Source: Candidatus Bathyarchaeia archaeon
GTDB taxonomy: Archaea; Thermoproteota; Bathyarchaeia; Bathyarchaeales; Bathycorpusculaceae
DNA: 64,000 bases
Direction of reading: 5' to 3'
Assembly: GCA_050012255.1 (NCBI GenBank)
Contig: JBEKHN010000002.1
Location: 64,001 to 128,000, forward strand
A program made the position numbers and the translations under genes. Positions 2,981-63,993 of the stretch are shown in pieces (the stretch's first letter is position 1; every line of letters begins with the position of its first letter). A model generated the notes under the pieces. It was not told the DNA's origin. It worked only from the letters and a program-made list of their open reading frames with translations, and made no database searches.

Positions 2981-3997
2981 GTGCCATCTGCATTTCCGAA
3001 AGAACACTGCAGGATTTGCGGGTCAACTCTTCACGGCAGGCTCTCTGGAAATATGTTCCCATCGGGTTGCAGTCACAACGTTTTAAAACTCGGAGCATCG
3101 CGCTATCATTGGTGTTCTGCTGTGTCACCCGGTGAAGGAATAGGGAAGATTACGAGCAACCCGTTTGCGACAGATGGAAAAGTCCTTCTGAGCAAAGTTG
3201 CGACGACTGGAAACCTGAAAGAGGACATCCTTAAAGCCGTTGATTTGATTGGCGGTTTCAACAAGGCCATCGACAAGGGCGACCAAGTCTTGCTGAAACC
3301 CAATTTTAACAGCACGGATTCTCCGCCCGCTTCAAGCGAACCGCAGTTTCTCAAAGCGATAGTTGAGTTGCTGTTCGAACATGGCGCCGGGAGAGTTGTC
3401 GTTGGAGAATCTTCTTGGCAAGCGCTTTCCACGAGGAAGGCTCTGGAACGAACTGGGACACTTGCCGCGCTTAAGGATTCAGGGGCAGAGATGGCGTTTT
3501 TCGATGAGGAAAAATACGTCAAAGTCAACGTTGGGGGCGAATACCTGAAAAGCGTCAGCTTATCAGAGAGGGCCATGCGAGTTGACAAGTTAGTTTATTC
3601 CTGCTGCATGAAGACACATTTCCGCGCTGACTTCTCCTTAAGCTTGAAATTGGCCTTCGGGTTCACGAAGAAGAGCGAAAGGAACGGGTTTCACATCAGG
3701 CATCTGAAAGAGAAACTTATCGATCTAAACCTAGTCGTGCATCCGAACCTGATAATCATGGACGGAAGAAAATGTTTCATAACCGGAGGACCATTCAGCG
3801 GCGAGGTGCGGAACCCAAACGTCATTCTTGCTTCCGGAGACCGAGTGGCCATGGACGTTGAATCCATCAAAGTTCTTGAAAGTTTCGAAGGTTCCAAACT
3901 GAAGAACAACCCTTGGAGCTATACTCAGATCCGCCGCGCAACCGCTCTCGGGCTTGGAGTAAGAAACGAGGATGAGTACACGGTTGTTTCCAACTGA
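2981..3997 (+). CDS. DUF362 domain protein (true start probably near 3140)
   Basis: VLLKPN, VVVGES, KTH, SLSLK and IMDG motifs; the first ~53 codons look non-coding. Confidence 0.85.
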   Translation: MPSAFPKEHCRICGSTLHGRLSGNMFPSGCSHNVLKLGASRYHWCSAVSPGEGIGKITSNPFATDGKVLLSKVATTGNLKEDILKAVDLIGGFNKAIDKGDQVLLKPNFNSTDSPPASSEPQFLKAIVELLFEHGAGRVVVGESSWQALSTRKALERTGTLAALKDSGAEMAFFDEEKYVKVNVGGEYLKSVSLSERAMRVDKLVYSCCMKTHFRADFSLSLKLAFGFTKKSERNGFHIRHLKEKLIDLNLVVHPNLIIMDGRKCFITGGPFSGEVRNPNVILASGDRVAMDVESIKVLESFEGSKLKNNPWSYTQIRRATALGLGVRNEDEYTVVSN

Positions 3998-53631: not shown

Positions 53632-54402
53632 TTGCCCCTTCCACTGGTTGAGCGATCTAAAGAAGAGATAGCTAAAGCTATTCGAAAGAAAGTTGAAGCC
53701 ATAAACCGGGTCAGAGGGATTCGCCACCTCGATGTTCGAATAAGTGGGAAAAGACTTGACGTGGATATTCACGCGTTCTTGGACAATGCCCTCACAAGCG
53801 AGGACATGCACGGGGTTGCTCTTGACATTGAGAGAGTCGTGAGAAACGAGTATCCCAATGCGCGGGTTTCAGTCGACACGGAACCTCTTGGACCAGGCCA
53901 AAATGGTGTCTGGAAGGCCGTGAAGGATGCAGCGGAAGAAACAGCGGGTTCAAGGGGGGTTCACAACATTCACATTCAAAGAATTGACGGAAAACTGTAC
54001 GTCGATCTTCATCTGGAGGTAAGCGCGAACATGACGGTGAAAGAAGCGCACGATGTTGCTGAACAGGTCGAGGGCAAGATAAGGATAACTAAGCCAGAAA
54101 TATCAGAAGTAACTGTTCACATCGAATCAGCATCAGACCGCATCTCAAGAGAGTTGGCAGGGGTCGAAACCGAGCTGGAATCATCCATTAAGCATGTCGC
54201 GAAGCAATTTCCCGAAATCCAGAGTGTCTCAGGAATCAGGATTCGCAAAGCTGGCGAGGGCATACACTTGACTCTTCACTGTCGTTTCGAGCCTGAACTT
54301 GGCATAAAAAAAGCGCATGAAATCTCCAGCAAGCTTGAGAAAGCACTCAGAACTGCTTACCCAAAGATAACTAGAATAGATGTCCATGAAGAGCCGGCTT
54401 AG
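53632..54402 (+). CDS. soluble protein of three cation-efflux dimerisation (ZT_dimer) domains
   Basis: three repeats of the H..R..G..VD.H..H..A..IE..VH.EP pattern; no TM. Confidence 0.8.
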   Translation: MPLPLVERSKEEIAKAIRKKVEAINRVRGIRHLDVRISGKRLDVDIHAFLDNALTSEDMHGVALDIERVVRNEYPNARVSVDTEPLGPGQNGVWKAVKDAAEETAGSRGVHNIHIQRIDGKLYVDLHLEVSANMTVKEAHDVAEQVEGKIRITKPEISEVTVHIESASDRISRELAGVETELESSIKHVAKQFPEIQSVSGIRIRKAGEGIHLTLHCRFEPELGIKKAHEISSKLEKALRTAYPKITRIDVHEEPA

Positions 54403-54484
54403 ATCACACCGATTTTTCTTCAATGCTCCGCATCGTTGCGGGTTGCGGATACTGTTAACTTAAAGGACATGAGTTCATAAGTGC

Positions 54485-57025
54485 TTAGCTTAGAAATTTC
54501 TGCATGGAACTTTGATCCTGAAGTTTGAAGTCACTCAGTCGAACTAGTCTATTACTTAATGCTTGAACAGTTTGTTTAGAAGGTTTCTCGTTCAGAAAAT
54601 CGCTTAGTTCATCATACGTTATCATGTACCAATTGTATTTTTCTATCTCTTCTTTGAGGATGGGTTCATGTATTCTAGCTCTCAAAAAGCGTTTTCGCTC
54701 ATCAGGTATAACAATCACACGCAACAAATTTTGACTAAGGATATTGCTACCTCTGATTATTGCTTCTGATATTCCCGTTGTGTTTTCGACCTCGAATATG
54801 GCATTTGCATTGTTCTTTGAATAGTAAATCACATCAATTTTCTTAAGTCGATTCTGATTGACTGCTTGAAAGGGAAAAGAAGCTTGTCTGTAGCCATCAA
54901 TATCCGCATGTACTTCATACCCTAGATGTTTGCCAAGTTCTGCAAGATTCTTTACTATTACATCGTGTTCTTTGACTCTCATTTTATACTTTGGCTTGAG
55001 CATCCATTTCTTATCAGGCGTTTTAGTCGCATATTCTTCTAAAACCTCTCTAACACTCTGCGTATTTGGTGTAAGTGCGTTTGGAAATCTGATGAAGATT
55101 TCTTGGAGTACATCATCAAAAGTGACTTTAACTTTGTCATTTAGGATGTTTATAACAAGCTTTTCTACTCGTTCACGAAGGGGAGTGCTTTCCAAGTACG
55201 GTATTGTGCTAGGGTCTTTAAACCACCATCCGACACCTACTGGCTTTCCTTTCTTGTCGGGAATTGGTTTAAGCACAAAATCGATGTTAAGTCTATTCTT
55301 GAGGACTTCCTCTATGCCTTTCGACCCTCTTTTGTCCACAAAAAAGACACCTTGTTTATCCAATTCAGGTATTATACCATTGAGAATAAACGTGAATGGT
55401 GTAGGTTCTCCACGCTCAGCTATTATTTTCTTGGTTGTTTCGATGACTACTCGAAAGTATTTCTCTTTGCTAGTTTGTTCCTCAGTTACTTCTTTCTTGC
55501 GTTCGGGCTTCCTAAATCGAATGTAGTAGTCCCCGACTGCGCTTCCATATGGCTGCAATGATGCCTTTGCTGACCTCACTGCGGGAGGTTGATATATGAT
55601 CTTCTCCAACTCGAAACCAGCCATTTTGATAGCTGAGATGATTGAGTTCCATACATCAATATCCGTGCTGTGAAATGTAACCGTCAAGAAGTGATTGGGT
55701 TTCAAGACTTTGTAGATTTGACCGAAAGACGTTGAGAGCATTCTGTGGTAGTATTCAAAGTCCTTGTTCTGACCCCGATTGATTGTTACTTCTTCTTTCC
55801 ACCATTGGTCTACTATATCGCTGTACTGTTTTCCTAATATCCAAGCGACACGGATTAAATCGAGTTCGAAATACTGAATTGCTCCGCCATATGGAGGGTC
55901 AGTGAAAACATAATCAACCGAGTTCGGTGGAACCCTCTGAGTCAACTCAATCGAATTTACGCGCTCAATGTAGTAGTGATCTTGGTTATTCAGCAATTGC
56001 TCGAATGATTTAGCGCAAATCAGGTTTGAAGGTATACGCTCGTTTCTATTCTCAACTCCCCTCTTCATTGAGTGAAATCGGTTTTCAAATCTTGACCAGA
56101 CATCGAATTCACAGTGAACTGGGAGAATTAGATATTCAGGGACCGTCCAAGCAGGTCCTCCTGTAACGAAACCTCCCCTCCAAGGCACGAGACGACTTGC
56201 TTGCGGAACCATTGACGAGAACACATATAGCATTGCTTGTTTGGAGATTTTGTCCTCAATCCTAGAAATCTCATCATAAAGAAGTGCCAAGGCGTAGAGA
56301 TTTCGGGCAGTGTAAAGTTCCTCAATGTCTCCTGCTCTCCTTTTTGTTCCGAAAGGTCTATCACCATTGTAGAAGAAACGAATTTTTGGATACCACACTG
56401 TGTCGAGTTGTACTCTAACGGGCTTCAACTTGGGATTGCTTACTTTGGAGGTTCGTTGACAGTGAAGACATGAGACTTGGAGAAAAATCGGTTCCTCTCC
56501 TACAATCGGGACGTTCGCATAACTGAAATCTTGTTTACAGTGCGGGCATTTGTATATGTTCTGCTGTTTGCCCTTTGGTCTCCTTGCCTCAGCCATGAGT
56601 ATGCGCTCTCTGCAAGTAGGGCAGTTGACTACGTAGGACCATACGACATAACGTGTTATGCCTTGCTTGTGGCATATTGGGCATTCAAAGTTGTAGAGTT
56701 TCTCAATCGTCTCTCTAACATCTGCTTTTATTGCCTCGAACGCGTGGTCAAGTGCCGTAGTGTCCGTTGTCTGGATGGTGGCTTTCATAGTTAAGATTGA
56801 GAGTGGGTCTAGGTCAAAGCCAACTGCTCGACGACCAAGACGCACAGCTTCAAAAAGGGTTACTCCACTTCCTGCGAAACCGTCGAGAACGATTTCTCCC
56901 TCTTTTGAGTAGTGTTCGATATAATCCGCGACAACATTATGCGGCTTTCTAGCCCAATACTTGTGGGTCAGGTACATGGGAGGATGAGTCCTAGGAACCA
57001 ACGCGTGATTGATGTGAGTGACCAA
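54485..57025 (-). CDS. amino-methyltransferase (probably N6-adenine) with Zn ribbons and a C-terminal nuclease-like domain
   Basis: HKYWARKP, motif I DGFAGSG, four CxxC, motif IV TDPPY, C-terminal IDVIYY..AIFEVE. Confidence 0.85.
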   Translation of the reverse strand: MVTHINHALVPRTHPPMYLTHKYWARKPHNVVADYIEHYSKEGEIVLDGFAGSGVTLFEAVRLGRRAVGFDLDPLSILTMKATIQTTDTTALDHAFEAIKADVRETIEKLYNFECPICHKQGITRYVVWSYVVNCPTCRERILMAEARRPKGKQQNIYKCPHCKQDFSYANVPIVGEEPIFLQVSCLHCQRTSKVSNPKLKPVRVQLDTVWYPKIRFFYNGDRPFGTKRRAGDIEELYTARNLYALALLYDEISRIEDKISKQAMLYVFSSMVPQASRLVPWRGGFVTGGPAWTVPEYLILPVHCEFDVWSRFENRFHSMKRGVENRNERIPSNLICAKSFEQLLNNQDHYYIERVNSIELTQRVPPNSVDYVFTDPPYGGAIQYFELDLIRVAWILGKQYSDIVDQWWKEEVTINRGQNKDFEYYHRMLSTSFGQIYKVLKPNHFLTVTFHSTDIDVWNSIISAIKMAGFELEKIIYQPPAVRSAKASLQPYGSAVGDYYIRFRKPERKKEVTEEQTSKEKYFRVVIETTKKIIAERGEPTPFTFILNGIIPELDKQGVFFVDKRGSKGIEEVLKNRLNIDFVLKPIPDKKGKPVGVGWWFKDPSTIPYLESTPLRERVEKLVINILNDKVKVTFDDVLQEIFIRFPNALTPNTQSVREVLEEYATKTPDKKWMLKPKYKMRVKEHDVIVKNLAELGKHLGYEVHADIDGYRQASFPFQAVNQNRLKKIDVIYYSKNNANAIFEVENTTGISEAIIRGSNILSQNLLRVIVIPDERKRFLRARIHEPILKEEIEKYNWYMITYDELSDFLNEKPSKQTVQALSNRLVRLSDFKLQDQSSMQKFLS

Positions 57026-57109
57026 ACTTTCCCCCTTGCTGATAATTGTATTGACAGCATAAACCTTTTATACTTGATATATCGTATCTGATATATAGGC
57101 GATACCTAT

Positions 57110-57994
57110 ATGATATGCAAATACTGTCAGTCTGAAAATGTCGTGAAGCATGGCAAGGCAAACGGCAAGCAGAGGTTTCTCTGTAAGAACTGTTGCCACA
57201 AGTTCTTCGAAGGTTCAGACTTTCCGAGAATGAGAAATAAATCACACATTATCTCTTCAAGTATTGACATGTACTTTGAAGGCTTGAGCGTCAGGAAAAT
57301 CCGAACTCAAGTTGAAAAATTATTTGGTGTGTCCGTTAGCCAAGTCGCAATTTGGAAATGGATAACTAAGTATTCGAGATTTGTCACTCGCTACGTTGAA
57401 ACGCTGAACCCTCAGCTTCAAGGTATCTATCATGTCGATGAAACCGCAATCAAATGCTCTGGGGTTCAAAAATGGTTTTGGGAAATCATAGACGAACAAA
57501 CAAAGTTTCTTGTAGCTGGTCATCTTTCAGCCTCTAGAACCACCGAGGACGCCGTGCAGTTATTTGAGAAGAGCATCAAGGTAGCTAAGAGGAAGCCAAT
57601 TTCGATTTACTGTGACGGATTGCCAGCTTACGTTGATGGCTACAACAAGGTTTTCTACACGATGAAGAAAGAAGGCAGACCCGAACTAATCAGAAGAGTA
57701 GGCATAAGAAACATACACAACCAAAACGCAGTAGAACGATTACACGGCACTCTCAAGGACAGAATCAAACCCGCTAGAGGGTTGAAAGGTGAAGAGACAG
57801 TTAGAACTCTTTTGGAAGGTTGGATTATCCATTATAATTACGTCCGCAAACATCAGACTTTGAAAATGACTCCAGCACAAGCTTGTGGCCTAAACATAAA
57901 GAACGATTGGCACTTGCTAGTGAAAGAAGCAACAAAGTATGATGCAACACACAAGGAATCAAATAGAAAACCAATAGAGGTAATGGCTACATGA
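57110..57994 (+). CDS. IS6-family DDE transposase with N-terminal Zn ribbon
   Basis: CKYC..VVKHG..QRFLCKNC; HTH GLSVRKI; DDE residues in VDET, CDG and N.VERLHGTLK. Confidence 0.92.
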   Translation: MICKYCQSENVVKHGKANGKQRFLCKNCCHKFFEGSDFPRMRNKSHIISSSIDMYFEGLSVRKIRTQVEKLFGVSVSQVAIWKWITKYSRFVTRYVETLNPQLQGIYHVDETAIKCSGVQKWFWEIIDEQTKFLVAGHLSASRTTEDAVQLFEKSIKVAKRKPISIYCDGLPAYVDGYNKVFYTMKKEGRPELIRRVGIRNIHNQNAVERLHGTLKDRIKPARGLKGEETVRTLLEGWIIHYNYVRKHQTLKMTPAQACGLNIKNDWHLLVKEATKYDATHKESNRKPIEVMAT

Positions 57995-58194
57995 AGAGAA
58001 TCTTGGTCAGTTTTCCAGAAGGAGTATTTGATATGGTTCATGGCTTGAAGGGCGAACTAGGCGAGAGCGATAGCGAAGTTGTACGAAACATAGTCGTAGC
58101 TTACCTTTCTGAACAAGGATTTTTTAGCAAAATCAGCATAAGAGGTGAAGGTAGCCAGTACAGGAGGAAAACAAATGAAGAAAAACAAAAGTGA
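57991..58194 (+). CDS. CopG/ribbon-helix-helix protein
   Basis: MKRILVSFP..GESDSEVVRNIVVAYLSE; ATGA overlap with the transposase stop. Confidence 0.75.
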   Translation: MKRILVSFPEGVFDMVHGLKGELGESDSEVVRNIVVAYLSEQGFFSKISIRGEGSQYRRKTNEEKQK

Positions 58195-58360
58195 AATCAG
58201 AGAGGCAGAAGATGAGATTGACTTACTAGACGACATGTTAACTTCATTGGTAGAACTGTTAGAAGAGAAAGGCATCCTAACTCAAGCGGAATGGGAAAGG
58301 AAAATCAAGGAAAGAATCAAGGGAAAACCCTCAACAAGCATCAGGGACCTCAAGGAATGA
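58175..58360 (+). CDS. small helical protein (61 aa)
   Basis: AGGAGG RBS before ATG at 58175; LTSLVELLEEKGILTQAEWE. Confidence 0.7.
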   Translation: MKKNKSEIREAEDEIDLLDDMLTSLVELLEEKGILTQAEWERKIKERIKGKPSTSIRDLKE

Positions 58361-58966
58361 TTCGTTCTGTTTTTCTTCTATCGGACAATTTGTGGAACAC
58401 AGACCGCCACAGGTCACTATTTCCTGCAAGACATCTCGTGTAAGCTTACAATCGTTTCTCGCGCAAACATGCTGGGCCAGACGATATTTTCTTACAGGTA
58501 TCATATGTCGGTCATCTGTTCCAAAAAAACGAGACAGACATTTTTTCTTCAAAGTTGCTACCGAGTAGAATCTTGGTTTGGTCGTAAATTTCTTAGCTTT
58601 TTTCAAGATAGTGACCGTCTGTTCTTCAACTTTGATTAATCCTACTTTACTAATCTCGAATTTTGGAGCATGCTTATCCGTTGCAACATATGCATAATCA
58701 ATGTAATCCATTATTCGATCTATTTGTTGTTCTGCTCTTGCAAGATTATCTCTTGATGATTTGACCTCAACATAGGTAAGTAATTGGTTCTTCAACAACA
58801 TCAAGTCAACATCAGACAAAACGCTTCCCCATGCAATGTTTAAGCTAGAGTGAGGGATCACTTCATAACCCCTCACTGAGAAGTATTCGGTCAGCGTCTT
58901 GATAATTTTTTCTTCATACTTACCCAGACGCTTGGTTGATTTGTGTATATTGCGAGCCAAGATCAT
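58331..58966 (-). CDS. PD-(D/E)xK nuclease-fold protein with Cys-rich C-terminus (Sce7726/MmcB-like)
   Basis: E..SDVDL..YVEVKSSRDNLARA..Q..Y.DY.YV; C-terminal C..C..CGGLC..NCP. Confidence 0.75.
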   Translation of the reverse strand: MILARNIHKSTKRLGKYEEKIIKTLTEYFSVRGYEVIPHSSLNIAWGSVLSDVDLMLLKNQLLTYVEVKSSRDNLARAEQQIDRIMDYIDYAYVATDKHAPKFEISKVGLIKVEEQTVTILKKAKKFTTKPRFYSVATLKKKCLSRFFGTDDRHMIPVRKYRLAQHVCARNDCKLTRDVLQEIVTCGGLCSTNCPIEEKQNESFLEVPDAC

Positions 58967-58968
58967 GA

Positions 58969-61209
58969 TTAACGGATAACCCCTAGTTGCTTGTTCAGAT
59001 CGTACACCTGTTGAGTGAGCGGTACATCACGTGCGAGAGTCTTCGAATTTATCAAAATTGCGCAACCATACCGTATTGTCGTTGCTTGTTGGTGTTCTGC
59101 TAGCATGTCTGCCGTAAGCCTAGGAGTTATGTAAAAATCCCAAGTGGCTTCCATGCTTTGTGATTCGTAAGCCCATTTGAAAATCTTCATGTTTGATTTT
59201 CTGTAAAGTTCTTTCTTGTTACTAGGGTCTGGACCACCATAGTCTCTGGCAGTCTTTCTCGCCCTAACTAAGAGGTAAGTATTGAGATGCGGCTTCGCCT
59301 CTCTAAAGTGGTTATCTGAGTGAACGAGAAACATCTTTATACAATTGACTAACTTAGGAACTGAAACTGAAATCTTGGCGGTAAAGTCAATGTTAAATTT
59401 GCTATCACTTAGCGTATCACGAAGGGGGATCGTTCCCTCAGCACAAACAAGTGCTTGAAGGTCATAGTTGAAATCATTAAGGGATTTTAGTTCGCCAAAT
59501 CCTCGGCATCCTTGTACTTCTCCGCTGGACAATGCCATAGCTATTGCTTTCAGAGTCTCGGCGTTCTCAAATCTGTGACCATACCGTGCATATATCTCTG
59601 CCAGATGATACACAAACAATGGTGCAGAAAAACTCGTCCCTAAGAAGCCATCAAAGCTTTGCCCATTTCTGTCAATGGATGCCACGCCCAACACCGTGCC
59701 GTCTTTACAATAATTCCCTCCATGTTCGATAAACTCAGGTTTTTGACAATCATATAGAAAACCATTATTGATCCCGCATCTCGTAAAAGGTGCCAATTCG
59801 TTCATTCGTGAGATTGAATTAGGTGCTTCTTTTTTGGCAATTGCCCCTATTGCTAAAGCGTTAACTGCTTGAGCAGGGTCTTTGACTGGATGGTGCAAAA
59901 TGTAAGATGCGCATGGGACTCCTTTGTATGCATAATCATTCACTACATCGGACTCAATGTTTCCTGTGGAAAATGCCGCACAAATGTTATTCTTTTGTAT
60001 CCATTTATCAATCGAAGCGGTAATCGCATCATTGTATCTTTCAAAGACTATCGACGAAACAAAGATGTGCGAACGCTTAGGGTTTGCCTCACTTGAATAT
60101 TTTGAAATCGCTAACTGATACCCCTCAGGATAAAGTCTCCTATCTGTGTCAGAGTAGATTTTATATGAAATTACCCTTGCTTTTGGAATAGACGAGTTTT
60201 CTCCGAATGCCGTCAAATACGCGATCGGCGTACCATGTCCTCGTTCTCCGAAATCATCGTTGAAATCTGGAAATCGCCTAAATCTGTCCCTTCCGATTAA
60301 CAATCCAGTAAGTTGCGGTATCTCGTTTACGCCAGAGTCGAGTACACATACTATCGGAAGATTATCATACGCGGTTCTATCAGAACCCACCGAAGATGCC
60401 CTGCCCCTAATACTCTGATTTGAGCGAGATCGTTTATTCTTTCTAGAAAGAGACATTTTCCCCAGCAAACCTTTGGGGATTTCGCTTACCCTAAACACAT
60501 AATTGGATACTTTCAACAACTGTTCGGTCGATTCTTGATTAAGAGAGGTCAATACGAAATCATTGTCACAACAACTTTGAGCATTGACATCCGAAAGTTT
60601 AAGGTTCTCCATTAGTTTGCTTGCGTATTCTTGTTTTTTCTCAGGCGAAAGGTTGGGAATCAACTCAATGATAACATCCTTTGGTTCTTTTGACCATTGA
60701 GAATCTCTCAGGTTTTCGGATACTTGTTCCTCCAAGAATAAAGGACTAACTCTTTTTATTGTTTTGAAGTAGACCCTAGAATAGTTTTTTCTCGCCACAA
60801 GACTCATCAACTTGGACAAAGGACAAGAGATAAGCAACTTAGTGTGTTCTAGATTCAAGTAGCAAAGTATTTCAGCAGAAAGATGCTCTAGAACAGTTAA
60901 CGTATTATCGTAAAAAACTTGTTTCCAGATTTCGGAAGGGTCATCTTTACGAACGAAATGACTCTCTACACCCAAAACGACATAAGCTGTATATTTATCT
61001 CGCAACTGTTTTGCTTCAATGGCTGAGACAGTATTCAAGATTTGTTCTCTCATTTCCTTATTGACCCATTCTTTCTCTTCATCCCTGACAGCTTCGTATT
61101 CAGCTTCAACAGGTCCTTTAATCCAAGCAGGTCTTTTCGGACTTTTTTCATCGTTTGTGGTTGCTTTCACAAAAATAAAGCTGTCAGAGTGAGAGGCACT
61201 ATCTACCAA
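58969..61209 (-). CDS. S8 subtilisin-like serine protease (Y4bN/IetS-like, no signal peptide)
   Basis: triad VCVLDSG / HGT / GTSFSAP, oxyanion STGN, PFTRCG, KPEF..GGN. Confidence 0.88.
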   Translation of the reverse strand: MVDSASHSDSFIFVKATTNDEKSPKRPAWIKGPVEAEYEAVRDEEKEWVNKEMREQILNTVSAIEAKQLRDKYTAYVVLGVESHFVRKDDPSEIWKQVFYDNTLTVLEHLSAEILCYLNLEHTKLLISCPLSKLMSLVARKNYSRVYFKTIKRVSPLFLEEQVSENLRDSQWSKEPKDVIIELIPNLSPEKKQEYASKLMENLKLSDVNAQSCCDNDFVLTSLNQESTEQLLKVSNYVFRVSEIPKGLLGKMSLSRKNKRSRSNQSIRGRASSVGSDRTAYDNLPIVCVLDSGVNEIPQLTGLLIGRDRFRRFPDFNDDFGERGHGTPIAYLTAFGENSSIPKARVISYKIYSDTDRRLYPEGYQLAISKYSSEANPKRSHIFVSSIVFERYNDAITASIDKWIQKNNICAAFSTGNIESDVVNDYAYKGVPCASYILHHPVKDPAQAVNALAIGAIAKKEAPNSISRMNELAPFTRCGINNGFLYDCQKPEFIEHGGNYCKDGTVLGVASIDRNGQSFDGFLGTSFSAPLFVYHLAEIYARYGHRFENAETLKAIAMALSSGEVQGCRGFGELKSLNDFNYDLQALVCAEGTIPLRDTLSDSKFNIDFTAKISVSVPKLVNCIKMFLVHSDNHFREAKPHLNTYLLVRARKTARDYGGPDPSNKKELYRKSNMKIFKWAYESQSMEATWDFYITPRLTADMLAEHQQATTIRYGCAILINSKTLARDVPLTQQVYDLNKQLGVIR

Positions 61210-61452
61210 GCGGTCTCCCTACTACATGTTAACCGATTGCTTTTAAAACTTATCACAGCAGTAGTAGCTGTGGTTTTCATTTTTCATGTCCCTTTAGTTA
61301 ACAGTGTCCGGGTTGCGAAATGCCTATATCTGTCTCTAGCCGTTAATGGAAGCTACAAACCCCATTATGCGCGATAAGGTGGTCCTGATCGAGGCGGATT
61401 CAATAATACGGCAAATGAGAAAACAATCGACGCACGTAAAGACTGCTGGTCT

Positions 61453-63993
61453 ATGTCCCCTGCGGATGCCTACCATTCCGTTGAAACCAATGAGAACGGT
61501 CTGTCTGAACAAGAAGCTCAACAACGCCTAAAGACATACGGATACAATGAGTTGGAAAGACCGAAATTCGGCTGGGCTCCGATTCTTATTAGACAATTCA
61601 AGAATCCGATATTTGTGATTCTAATCGCATGTGCCATCGTATCAGCGCTCTTCGCCACGCTTGAGCAGGCAATATCCATACTTTTGATGATTGCGATAGC
61701 CGTGGTCTTGGGCTTCGTTAACGAGTACAGAGCTGAGAAGACCGTTCACGACCTTCAAAAGCGCGTATCTATCAGGGCTGTCGTTATAAGAGACAGTAAG
61801 CCCTCCGAAATTGAATCGAGGCTTCTTGTCCCAGGCGACCTTGTCTCCTTCTACGTGGGAGACATCGTCCCAGCCGACATGAGAATAGTACAATCCATCG
61901 ACCTTCACGTTAATGAGGCAGCACTTACCGGAGAATCTTTTCCTGTTGAAAAGACGTCTGAAAGCCTCGATGTTCAACACCCCACGCCGCAGCAGTTGAC
62001 AAACTACATGTTCATGGGCAGCGTGGTGGCAAACGGGAGCGGTCGAGGCATCGTCGTGTCGACAGGAAAAAACTCGGAGTTCGGATCGATATCCAAGAGC
62101 CTAATCCGATCTCACCCTGAAACCCCCTTTCAAAAGGGTGTCAGGAGTTACGGAAACATGCTTCTCACACTGACACTGGCGCTAGTATTGGGAATATTCT
62201 CAATCAACGCCGCCATGGGTCATAACCCGGTCGATTCTCTGCTTTTCTCTCTCGCAGTTGCCGTCGGGCTCGTGCCCGAGCTGATGCCCGCCATCGTAAC
62301 GATCAGCCTCTCTCAAGGGGCGAGGAAAATGTCGAGGCTGAAGGTCATCGTGAAACGCCTAGTTTCGATAGAGGACTTCGGCAACATGGATGTCCTGTGC
62401 ACTGACAAAACAGGGACGCTCACAGAGGGCAAGATCTCCCTAAAGGACTACTGTTCGCCTGGCGCAGACAAAGATCCGAGAGTCATCCCCTATTCGCTGC
62501 TCTGCAACACCGCGATCCAAGGGGAGAAGATCACTGGCAACCCAATGGATGTGGCGATCTGGGAGTATGCTATCAAGAATGGCGCACAAGAAGGTGTGAC
62601 ATCCTACGGTAGGACGAGCGAGATTCCATTTGACTACCAGCGGAGAATGATGTCGGTGGTAGTTAGAAAGGATAGCGATTTCTTCCTCATCACTAAGGGT
62701 GCTCCAGAATCAGTTCTCTCCAGATGTGACTACTCTGAGACTCTGGGTAAGAAGGAACCAATAGGCGACGTTCTGAAGTCAATTCGTGCCAAGTTTTCCG
62801 ATCTCTCAATGCAGGGATACCGTGTTTTAGCAATCGCAAGTCGAAGCATAGACCAGAAGAAAGCGTACACGGTTGAAGACGAGGCGAACCTAACGTTTCT
62901 AGGCCTCCTAATATTCACTGACCCCTGTAAAGAGGATGCCCATCAAGCGATCATAAAGCTGAAGGAGATGGGGGTTGACGTCAAGATACTCACAGGCGAC
63001 AACGAGCTCGTAGCGAGAAAAATATGTGAGGAAGTAGATGTTCCCGTTAGAAAAATAGTATCTGGTTCAGAATTAACTCAGATGAGCTCGACCGAAATTA
63101 AGAAGGCAGCAGAAGAGGCCACAATTTTCGCTAGGATCACCCCAGAACAGAAGCTAGACATTATCAAAGCCCTAAAGGAGAACAAGCATGTGGTGGGCTT
63201 CATGGGTGACGGAGTGAATGATGCTCCAGCCCTCTACGAGGCAGACGTGGGCATATCGGTCGACACAGCGGTTGATGTTTCTAAAGACGCAGCGGACATT
63301 GTGCTTCTGGAAAAAGATCTGCCGGTGCTAGTAGACGGTATTAATGAGGGCAGAAAGATCTTCGGCAACACCATAAAGTATGTTCTAATGGGAACGAGTT
63401 CGAACTTTGGAAACATGTTCAGCGCCGCAGCAGCCTCTATCTTCCTTCCATTTCTCCCGATGTTGCCGATTCAGATACTCTTCATGAACCTGCTGTACGA
63501 CATGTCTAACATGACGATACCAACCGACAACGTTGATGAAGAGTACACCAAGACGCCAAGAAAATGGGACATGAGCTTCGTGCGAAAGTACACGCTGTTC
63601 TTCGGCCCATTCAGTTCCGTCTATGACTTTCTAACCTACGGCATCATGCTTTTCGTCTTCGGATGTTGGGCAGGAACAAATGGTAGCTACCTAGCAGCAC
63701 TGTTCCAAAGTGCATGGTTCGTAGAATCATTCTGGACAGAGGTCTTAATCATGTTCGTCATCAGGACTAGGCGCATCCCCTTCTTCACAAGCCGTCCAGG
63801 GAAGTGGCTAGCAGGATTCTTAATAGGGTTCGTCGCGTTCGGAACCATATTGCCATTCACACCTTTCGGCGGCTTCTTGGGAATGGTGCCGCTTCCAGCC
63901 GAATTCTGGGTTCTGGTCGCGCTTATGACAGTTACCTATCTGTTTCTTGTGGATGCAGGCAAAGTGTTCTTCTACAAGATATGCAAGTTTTAA
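61453..63993 (+). CDS. mgtA: Mg2+-translocating P-type ATPase
   Basis: TGESFPVEK, AVGLVPELMP, DKTGTLT, PFDYQRR, MGTSSNFGNMFS, NLLYD. Confidence 0.93.
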   Translation: MSPADAYHSVETNENGLSEQEAQQRLKTYGYNELERPKFGWAPILIRQFKNPIFVILIACAIVSALFATLEQAISILLMIAIAVVLGFVNEYRAEKTVHDLQKRVSIRAVVIRDSKPSEIESRLLVPGDLVSFYVGDIVPADMRIVQSIDLHVNEAALTGESFPVEKTSESLDVQHPTPQQLTNYMFMGSVVANGSGRGIVVSTGKNSEFGSISKSLIRSHPETPFQKGVRSYGNMLLTLTLALVLGIFSINAAMGHNPVDSLLFSLAVAVGLVPELMPAIVTISLSQGARKMSRLKVIVKRLVSIEDFGNMDVLCTDKTGTLTEGKISLKDYCSPGADKDPRVIPYSLLCNTAIQGEKITGNPMDVAIWEYAIKNGAQEGVTSYGRTSEIPFDYQRRMMSVVVRKDSDFFLITKGAPESVLSRCDYSETLGKKEPIGDVLKSIRAKFSDLSMQGYRVLAIASRSIDQKKAYTVEDEANLTFLGLLIFTDPCKEDAHQAIIKLKEMGVDVKILTGDNELVARKICEEVDVPVRKIVSGSELTQMSSTEIKKAAEEATIFARITPEQKLDIIKALKENKHVVGFMGDGVNDAPALYEADVGISVDTAVDVSKDAADIVLLEKDLPVLVDGINEGRKIFGNTIKYVLMGTSSNFGNMFSAAAASIFLPFLPMLPIQILFMNLLYDMSNMTIPTDNVDEEYTKTPRKWDMSFVRKYTLFFGPFSSVYDFLTYGIMLFVFGCWAGTNGSYLAALFQSAWFVESFWTEVLIMFVIRTRRIPFFTSRPGKWLAGFLIGFVAFGTILPFTPFGGFLGMVPLPAEFWVLVALMTVTYLFLVDAGKVFFYKICKF

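Follow-up and report, generated by a model that had tools for sequence, protein, structure and literature searches.

An IS6-like family of cargo-carrying unit transposons in Bathyarchaeia and methanogens, probably inserting at promoter edges

We analysed a stretch of 64,000 nucleotides from a Candidatus Bathyarchaeia archaeon (assembly GCA_050012255.1, contig JBEKHN010000002.1, positions 64,001 to 128,000; referred to below as the window and numbered from its first base) and studied an island that lies between a ZT_dimer gene and an mgtA-like gene. The segment at 54448-61308 is very probably an intact copy of a unit transposon, or transporter insertion sequence (tIS), with a DDE transposase and terminal inverted repeats (TIRs), and the transposase is a zinc-ribbon relative of IS6. 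An original prediction, made from the window alone, proposed an archaeal class of unit transposons that moves defence genes. This proposal is borne out by an architecture and a type of cargo that recur across Bathyarchaeia and methanogens. Judged from sequence, the family would work like a tIS or unit transposon, with an enzyme and ends that appear IS6-like and lie nearest to the long zinc-finger branch of that group.

The element spans 6,861 bp between two exact copies of a 9-bp target-site duplication (TSD), CGGGTTGCG, read at 54439-54447 and 61309-61317 (both unstranded). The left TIR, GATACTGTTAACTTAAAGGACATGA (54448-54472, forward strand), is of a subtype close to the ends of loci L040 and L045, which are perfect pairs. 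The right TIR (61284-61308, reverse strand), whose reverse complement is GACACTGTTAACTAAAGGGACATGA, is of the subtype that forms a perfect pair in L048. The window's two ends thus belong to two subtypes, each found as a perfect pair in other elements, which fits a recombinant origin of the window copy. Inverted ends matching at 23 of 26 positions had been described, and they are present as such; the variable first base of that 26-mer (G, A or C) is always identical to the flanking base and is therefore part of the duplication, which places the element bounds at 54448 and 61308 and leaves 25-nt ends that match at 22 positions. Homology to related copies in two public sequencing runs (X3 and X4) ends exactly at 61308. 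A repeat finder returned arms at 54446-54472 and 61284-61310 (27 nt, 89% complementary), and a 26-nt degenerate end pattern matched only twice in the 64-kb window and not once in 100 shuffles. The G+C content is about 0.37-0.47 within the element and about 0.48-0.53 in its flanks. As had been noted, the 294-aa transposase gene sits mid-element, far from both ends (2.66 kb on the left side, 3.31 kb on the right). A search of 54000-61800 against Rfam gave no match at E values up to 1, and a scan for sigma-70 promoters and terminators, with models unsuited to archaea, stayed at shuffle level.

Empty sites support these boundaries. We searched the region and its flanks in 41 genomes, including the organism's own (38 contigs, 2.35 Mb, with the window on contig C2). 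In a complete genome of the same genus (G001), the flanks align as two matches (left, 95% identity; right, 92%) that overlap by 9 nt, and the ZT_dimer gene and mgtA are contiguous. The joined-flank sequence, ...gcatcgttgCGGGTTGCGaaatgcctatatc..., is the predicted empty site with one CGGGTTGCG, so the empty allele that had been called for does exist. In three other genomes of the genus (G004, G008 and G009) the two genes lie about 100 nt apart, and in G010 both flanks are on one contig, about 1.6 kb apart. The perfect duplication had also been read as a sign of recent insertion; this holds in a relative sense only, in that the insertion is absent from species with flanks 92-95% identical. At the same site in G007 (L009, about 2990-3375), 373 nt of unrelated sequence separate the ZT_dimer gene from mgtA and end just before gcggttgcgaaatgcc; another insertion may have occurred there.

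Assembled Logan contigs of four public runs (no raw reads) were compared over 54000-61800. All four runs hold contigs that join about 54439/54441 to 61311/61312 and skip 6,870-6,871 nt. Run X1, possibly the one from which the window derives, contains the occupied form, as a 7,134-nt contig with no differences and a depth of 14.6, together with an empty form, as a 262-nt contig with 21 differences and a depth of 4.3, which therefore comes from another strain. In X3 and X4 the transposase and right arm recur at about 97% identity with other left arms and other flanks. A joint from 54470 to 61285 in these two runs (side 21) was put down to an alignment effect of the inverted ends. Another joint, from 54470 to 57078 in X4, hints at a variant without the left cargo; it was seen in one contig with a side of 26, under the tool's side limit of 30.

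Relatives of the window transposase numbered 19 in GTDB species genomes and 151 in JGI metagenome contigs, the best 80 of which were kept, giving 99 loci from Bathyarchaeia and methanogens. Among the GTDB relatives, identity was 63-81% in Bathyarchaeia and about 50% in Methanobacterium, Methanoperedens and Methanolobus. We used a pair finder that required a 24-nt inverted pair with at least 17 matches and the start G[AG]N[AT][CT]TG on either side of the transposase gene. An end pair was found in 71 of the 99 loci, with the ends 2.0-8.4 kb apart. The duplication was exact and 9 bp long in 59 of the 71 pairs, 8 bp long in two (L023 and L096) and could not be judged in two at a contig or record end. 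Of the two lengths that had been offered for the window duplication we accordingly keep 9 bp and drop 7 bp; the 8 bp expected from the IS6 norm does not apply here. Of the 28 loci in which no pair was found, 25 have a flank shorter than about 2.3 kb on one or both sides; the exceptions are L065, L077 and L116.

After removal of repeats, 67 distinct insertions remained, with lengths of 2,021-8,421 bp and a median of 4,050 bp. Every one of them holds one to five non-core open reading frames (ORFs) of at least 100 aa, and in none do the ends hug the transposase alone, the shortest element being the one of 2,021 bp. Homologous transposases are thus regularly found with distant ends and variable cargo, as a unit-transposon class implies. 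A quick FastTree phylogeny of 66 transposases requires 13 changes of end class (positions 8-13), compared with at least 34 in every one of 500 label shuffles, a result compatible with the transposase using these ends as its substrate. These data bear on the suggestion that two unrelated solo ends happen to surround an island that integrated by other means, with the transposase a mere passenger. The distance of the transposase from both ends, unusual for IS6, would suit such a composite. Nevertheless, we consider it hardly credible, given that the same architecture with an exact 9-bp duplication occurs in 59 loci, that the empty site is exact and that end class tracks the transposase tree. Moreover, the 25 most frequent cargo Pfam families include no other transposase or integrase family, except for one DDE_3 match.

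The transposase (57110-57994, forward strand) carries an N-terminal zinc ribbon (C3, C6, C25 and C28, invariant over 33 family members) and a catalytic set, D110, D169, E209 and K216, that is invariant across 33 family members and in the alignment with IS26 (from L118). Its best DDE match in Pfam is DDE_Tnp_IS240 (PF13610, 72.3 bits; cut-off 27). A tblastn search against 72,556 plasmids matched at least 5,000 records, and each of 25 rows drawn at even intervals from the ranking carries an IS6-family annotation. The top row, with 27.1% identity over residues 3-267 (E 1e-22), is a clostridial plasmid gene of the IS6 family, and IS26 aligned by tblastn at 26.8% identity over residues 33-237 (E 5e-7). 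A word-indexed protein search returned 668 proteins at E ≤0.001, mostly in singleton clusters, one of which is named 'IS6 family transposase' by NCBI. The family ends read G(A/G)YACTGTT... over about 24-25 nt; most start with GA and some with GG. When the IS26 end from L118 (GGCACTGTTGCAAA), the L030 end (GATACTGTTGCGTT) and the window end (GATACTGTTAACTT) are set side by side, the core and a G at position 7 are common to them, and we regard the family ends as homologous to the IS26 end GGCACTGTTGC on the basis of this alignment. The IS6-like character ascribed to the transposase at the outset is therefore upheld by the PF13610 match, by the D, D, E and K shared with IS26 and by ends with the IS26 core.

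Some matches point instead to IS1. The NCBIfam IS1 model NF033558 scored 69.3 bits (E 4e-19), the IS1/IS1595-type zinc-binding domain NF050000 scored 42.3 bits (above its cut-off of 28) and Pfam Zn_ribbon_InsA was weakly matched (E 3.3e-5). IS1 typically makes 9-bp duplications, the length found in this family. That the family is better placed with IS1-like elements and works in their manner is nevertheless very improbable. The IS1 model score lies below its cut-off of 100, while the IS6 model NF033587 reached 124 bits (just under its own cut-off of 125); the Pfam matches of the transposase include no IS1 DDE domain; and the sampled plasmid rows and the alignment of the ends with the IS26 end both favour a relationship to IS6.

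The IS6 relationship has its own bounds. According to the available portion of Varani et al. 2021 (PMC7986276), IS6 elements have 14-bp ends and 8-bp repeats, measure about 0.7-1.8 kb and include one passenger-carrying member, ISDsp3; IS26 makes 8-bp duplications and moves cargo via cointegrates as two-copy pseudo-compound transposons. The window family shares with the ISfinder definition of IS6 given there the homology, the DDE triad plus K/R and ends related to GGCACTGTTGCAAA, though of about 24-25 nt. With IS26, an 820-bp element whose 14-bp ends start with GG (as read in L118), it has in common the catalytic columns and the end core ACTGTT(G/A)(C/A). The closest likeness is to the long zinc-finger IS6 branch (clade VII in PMC6807381 and clade h in PMC7986276, as far as the accessible text of each describes it; ISCbo1 and ISCpe7), where an N-terminal zinc domain is likewise set on a DDE core and the ends are related to GGCACTGTT; this likeness is one of features and search matches, not of a tree. 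The part of Harmer & Hall 2019 (PMC6807381) at hand gives the clostridial zinc-finger clade VII a length of 1.2-1.35 kb, transposases of 340-353 aa and an 8-bp duplication, and holds that long and archaeal forms should be outside the IS6/IS26 family. Its strict definition asks for ends with GG at the start and for a short transposase that lacks additional N-terminal domains; the present family falls outside, having mostly GA ends and a four-cysteine zinc ribbon in the transposase. In contrast to clade VII/h insertion sequences as portrayed in those excerpts, the window family measures 2.0-8.4 kb, has 9-bp duplications, two small accessory genes and constant cargo, and resides in archaea. Compared with IS6, the novelty would appear to lie in the 9-bp duplication, the size, the cargo, two obligatory small genes and a distinctive target.

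Several observations weigh against the assignment to a family of IS6-like unit transposons. Most duplications differ from the 8 bp of IS6, and the elements, all with a cargo ORF, are neither compact, nor one-ORF, nor passenger-free; the IS6 model narrowly misses its cut-off. Agreement between ends and tree is expected for any linked trait and is by itself no proof that the transposase acts on the ends. Six of the 71 end pairs have no duplication, a pattern that intramolecular or recombination events could produce but that is not diagnostic of them, and two have an imperfect one (8/9 matching in L110 and 7/9 in L073). The empty alleles in the runs differ by about 5-10% in their flanks from the window and would thus belong to other strains or species. 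The four runs, as assembled contigs, give no experimental or read-level evidence of movement, and the element, single-copy in its own genome, is at most putatively active at present. Finally, some short cargo ORFs may be spurious, and most cargo clusters are without a family match. Set against these points, one end pair around one transposase gene and its passengers, flanked by a duplication, is the arrangement that defines a tIS or unit transposon.

The single copy, the differences between the two ends at 3 of 25 positions and the lack of read-level evidence of excision or new insertions (in runs compared as assembled contigs) could equally describe a fixed, immobile island, whose ends and duplication are relics and whose genes are kept for the benefit of the host. 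We regard this as decidedly unlikely for the window copy. The transposase ORF is full length with all family-invariant residues, the duplication is perfect and both end subtypes occur as working-looking perfect pairs in other elements. Many metagenome contigs, in addition, consist of an element plus about 125 nt per side, the likely shape of a polymorphic-insertion bubble.

Contigs of this kind, with about 100-131 nt of flank (mostly 123-127), were seen with both flanks short for L047, L074, L091, L092 and L097, and with at least one short flank for L045, L049, L057, L068, L069, L071, L088 and L102. An assembly bubble would leave contigs of this shape at a polymorphic insertion if the sample contained both the occupied and the empty allele.

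Six ORFs lie between the ends of the window element. The original prediction counted five passenger genes beside the transposase; three of these are variable cargo, and the other two (57991-58194 and 58175-58360) are conserved core genes by family hidden Markov models (HMMs), which we built from the two small ORFs and ran on all ORFs of the 67 elements. The first core gene (57991-58194, forward strand) overlaps the transposase stop codon and encodes a 67-aa protein that we label ribbon-helix-helix (RHH)-like by sequence appearance. It was found in 61 of 67 elements, always directly 3' of the transposase gene. Four Methanobacterium-type elements have an AbrB/MazE-like ORF in its stead (weak Pfam match, E 0.0065), and in these four the AbrB/MazE-like and SHOCT-like pair lies upstream on the opposite strand. 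The second core gene (58175-58360, forward strand) encodes a 61-aa, two-helix SHOCT-like protein and is present in 67 of 67 elements, with the consensus ...EIDxLDxMLxxLVExLEEKGILTQEEWExKIK... (alignment A1). Pfam SHOCT matched the copy of L035 at E 8.5e-5 (22.6 bits, below the cut-off of 27), and the window's two small core proteins have no Pfam match beyond noise at E up to 1. A structure model of the SHOCT-like protein places helices at residues 2-31 and 37-48, with a predicted local distance difference test (pLDDT) score of 84.7; when the fold of this model was searched in the PDB, nothing reached E ≤0.001 (best E 5.5). The predicted complex of transposase and SHOCT-like protein scored 0.00, which is informative for neither view. 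We predict that the two small core proteins probably serve in regulation or assembly.

A family-conserved nucleotide block starts about 44 nt 5' of the transposase ATG (57066-57109, forward strand) and marks the breakpoint of the left arm. The blastn blocks begin at element positions 2603-2632, and homology of the related copies in X3 and X4 begins at about 57050-57078. The transposase promoter presumably lies in this block. The stretch at 57060-57109, 5' of the transposase ATG, contains several TATA-like strings (cttttatac, gatatatcg and gatatatagg) and is a likely candidate both for the promoter of the element itself and for a binding site of the RHH-like protein.

The left arm contains one cargo gene (54485-57025, reverse strand) for an 846-aa DNA methyltransferase with a long C-terminal part (Pfam N6_N4_Mtase, E 1.3e-20; PADLOC MTase_II, E 1.7e-66 over residues 10-515, and PglX-like, E 1.8e-53), and the same cluster forms the left arm of L047 and L049. 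The right arm contains two. A 211-aa nuclease-like protein with weak sce7726/YraN similarity (58331-58966, reverse strand; NCBIfam NF033832, E 1.1e-11, below cut-off) is followed by a 746-aa S8 (subtilase) peptidase (58969-61209, reverse strand; Pfam PF00082, E 1.1e-17). The peptidase resembles IetS of the IetAS defence system in PADLOC (E 1.9e-28). Its NCBIfam IteS score of 76.9 bits is, however, far below the cut-off of 900, and IetAS needs an IetA ATPase, of which there is none in the window element; the partner here is the 211-aa protein. We therefore do not place it in IetAS. The peptidase and the nuclease-like protein (58331-61209) are always paired, as a fixed two-gene arm in six elements without an ATPase gene, which fits a self-contained module. 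Outside the element, the left flank holds the ZT_dimer gene, a cation-efflux-type host gene (53632-54402, forward strand; Pfam PF16916, E 2e-47), and the right flank the mgtA-like host gene for a P-type cation ATPase (61453-63993, forward strand; Pfam E1-E2_ATPase, E 7.4e-45, and related domains).

The two arms vary independently around the core. The nuclease-like and S8 arm of six elements is combined with five different left arms, and the 846-aa methylase arm occurs with the S8 arm in the window and L047 and with a different right arm in L049. Among 149 element pairs with transposases 85-95% identical, the left-arm cluster is common in 51, the right-arm cluster in 31 and both in only four. 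Elements are homologous at the nucleotide level from about 30-60 nt (mostly 44) 5' of the transposase ATG to a point within the small-gene region, and the arm breakpoints in the other runs agree with these limits.

A simple ORF caller yielded 455 cargo ORFs in 206 clusters, 166 of them singletons. We searched Pfam with per-protein scans and with per-member scans of 118 cluster representatives of at least 100 aa. Named cargo includes N6_Mtase (six members), Eco57I (six), Methylase_S (three), PIN (three), N6_N4_Mtase (two) and MmeI-type (two) proteins; in three proteins scanned individually, N6_N4_Mtase is fused to Mrr_cat. There are also a type ISP enzyme (E 1e-82), type IIG enzymes (PADLOC, E 1e-198), PAPS_reduct, an ABC-3C set (DUF2326 and CTD10-HNH), MazF/PemK, NYN, HATPase_c_3, AAA_14/DUF4143, SocA/Panacea, Hypoth_Ymh, and S8, trypsin-like and C39-like peptidases. 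By cluster labels, 23 of the 67 elements carry a restriction-modification-type methylase or specificity gene. The named cargo thus consists mostly of restriction-modification, toxin-type nuclease or other conflict genes, while most cargo remains unnamed. The description of the cargo as defence-type is apt for a good share of it, including the PIN, MazF and ABC-3C genes, and does not extend to the majority of clusters, which lack a Pfam match. From these similarities, a function in defence may be predicted for the named genes.

The organism's own genome encodes two further relatives of the transposase, 73% (contig C21) and 41% (contig C1) identical to that of the window. The first lies in a second complete element of 2,864 bp (C21:713-3576), with ends matching at 24/24 and the duplication CTTTCAACA. 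The second, a 390-aa protein, lies in a 6,570-bp element (C1:265763-272332) whose GGTTCTGTTAAC ends match at 23/24 and whose duplication fits 8 bp (TGATAAAG). This element contains a 1,038-aa ORF and, by the family HMMs, neither an RHH-like nor a SHOCT-like gene. It represents a second, more distant cargo-carrying clade.

We also observed end pairs without a transposase in this genome. One of 938 bp (C16:52865-53802) contains a 188-aa ORF together with a truncated SHOCT-like gene and is flanked by an exact 9-bp duplication; another of 2,373 bp (C13:30574-32946) has ends matching at 22/24; a third of 635 bp (C1:250560-251194) is of the GGTTCTGTT type. They are probably non-autonomous derivatives. 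Elsewhere in the family, the right flank of L075 starts, directly after the 9-bp duplication, with an end of another subfamily (gatactgtccactt...), so that one element abuts the end of another, and L056 contains a second, partial transposase ORF. A scan of viral contigs returned only two distant relatives (37% and 42% identity, the latter partial), with no end pair around L119 by the end pattern, and thus no sign that the family is carried by viruses.

The target sites share a feature that had not been part of the original prediction and is a new observation of this analysis. We rebuilt the empty sites of 55 insertions with an exact duplication and enough flank, and found an A/T-rich block at a fixed distance from the duplication. 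Strict TATA-like hexamers peak 5-6 nt from the duplication, with 35 matches, compared with at most two at any other distance up to 54. With the strict list, 26 of 107 flanks have the start of the motif at offset 3-8, and with a relaxed list 45 do; other 6-nt windows, from offset 12 to 89, gave 0-5 (strict) or 0-7 (relaxed) of 107. It is present on one side in 43 of the 55 sites and on both in one, to the left of the element in 23 cases and to the right in 22, so element orientation is free. The oriented flank consensus, nAAnnYTTAWAW, resembles what we take to be an archaeal B recognition element (BRE) and TATA box. Outward-reading ORFs start within 25-260 nt in 26 of 35 motif-side flanks and in 21 of 48 other sides (flanks of at least 300 nt; Fisher p 0.007). 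In the window, the BRE/TATA-like host motif aaatgcCTATAT (61318-61329, forward strand), at the position enriched across the family, precedes the mgtA-like ATG at 61453 and is probably the mgtA promoter, judging from its sequence and place. All four elements of the own genome whose flanks were inspected have the motif on one side.

Taken together, these patterns suggest that the family probably targets promoter edges actively. The position beside TATA-like boxes might also reflect a plain preference for A/T-rich sequence together with survival of non-disruptive insertions. The motif is short and A/T-rich, promoters were assigned from sequence, and the relaxed list was drawn up after the flanks had been seen; 11 of the 55 sites have no motif, and an outward ORF is also near many non-motif sides. 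We find such a passive origin rather unlikely. Selection alone would not fix the distance at 5-6 nt, a symmetric transpososome would be expected to prefer palindromic sites, unlike the one-sided motif seen here, and outward ORFs are enriched on the motif side.

Two pairs of insertions share their target sequences. L024 (in G001) and L029/L089 are different elements, of 3,094 and 4,376 bp, with reverse-complementary duplications (TGTCGAAAG and CTTTCGACA) and similar flanks, and C21/L108 and L045 have the same duplication, CTTTCAACA. The same promoter-edge sites seem to be struck repeatedly.

We infer the following course for catalysis and cargo gain. The transposase would bind the roughly 25-nt ends that start with G(A/G)YACTGTT, and the 3' ends of the element would be joined to target DNA cut with a 9-nt stagger, gap repair then producing the 9-bp duplication. 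The fixed core, tnp-rhh-shoct, begins about 44 nt 5' of the tnp ATG and is separated from the ends by two free cargo arms. Related elements exchange these arms independently, which would most simply occur by homologous recombination in the shared core. Insertion would be directed to the upstream edge of a host promoter: it would take place on the AA-rich (BRE-like) side of a TATA-like box, 5-6 nt away from it, and so leave host genes unbroken. It may be guided either by DNA sequence or by the bound TBP/TFB complex.

Yeast retroelements are also promoter-directed, with Ty3 inserting at Pol III start sites and Tf1 at Pol II promoters. Like them, the window family would settle at a constant distance from the machinery that initiates transcription, or from its DNA signature, and spare coding sequence. 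The elements described here differ in being archaeal DNA transposons, and a contact with TBP/TFB would be pure conjecture. In general architecture, a single transposase module with passengers within one end pair is common to tIS, to unit transposons such as the Tn3 family and to the defence-laden Tn7-like transposons, whose cargo is likewise rich in defence genes in the available part of Benler et al. 2021 (PMC8649781). Compared with Tn3 and Tn7-like elements, the window family has no resolvase or multi-protein Tns machinery, uses another transposase family and bears cargo on both sides of its core; the Tn7-like target is attTn7-type or CRISPR-guided, whereas the target here appears to be the promoter edge. 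In the literature searched, no account was found of archaeal IS6-like transposons that carry cargo and have 9-bp duplications or TATA-adjacent targets, and IS6 is not mentioned in an Asgard mobile-element paper; ISfinder and the supplements of PMC7986276 and PMC6807381 lay outside this search and may list members.

We speculate, as a possibility short of a probability, that the elements form a branch within a large and so far undescribed superfamily of archaeal transposons that arose from zinc-finger IS6-like transposases. Members of this superfamily would always bear cargo, would have the DNA-binding and SHOCT-like proteins as obligatory partners, would integrate at the upstream edge of BRE/TATA promoters via the pre-initiation complex or a DNA signature, and would be a main shuttle for the reshuffling of restriction-modification, toxin and other conflict modules among Bathyarchaeia and methanogens. 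If this is true, they would be a prokaryotic counterpart of the promoter-targeting retroelements.

IS6 elements are textbook cases of very small insertion sequences whose cargo travels only in two-copy composites. Here, a relative of the IS6 transposases runs a whole family of single-copy transposons with exchangeable cargo arms in uncultured archaea. Mobile elements of Bathyarchaeia and methanogens are poorly known, and the family supplies a concrete means by which restriction-modification and other conflict genes can spread horizontally and be reshuffled there. Since the element boundaries can be called automatically from the end motif and the 9-bp duplication, the variable arms amount to a ready-made list of candidate defence genes of archaea, the majority of which have no family name. 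The fixed position beside a TATA-like box makes target-site choice in archaea directly testable, and a promoter-adjacent, gene-sparing element with small core proteins could serve as a genetic tool for archaea.

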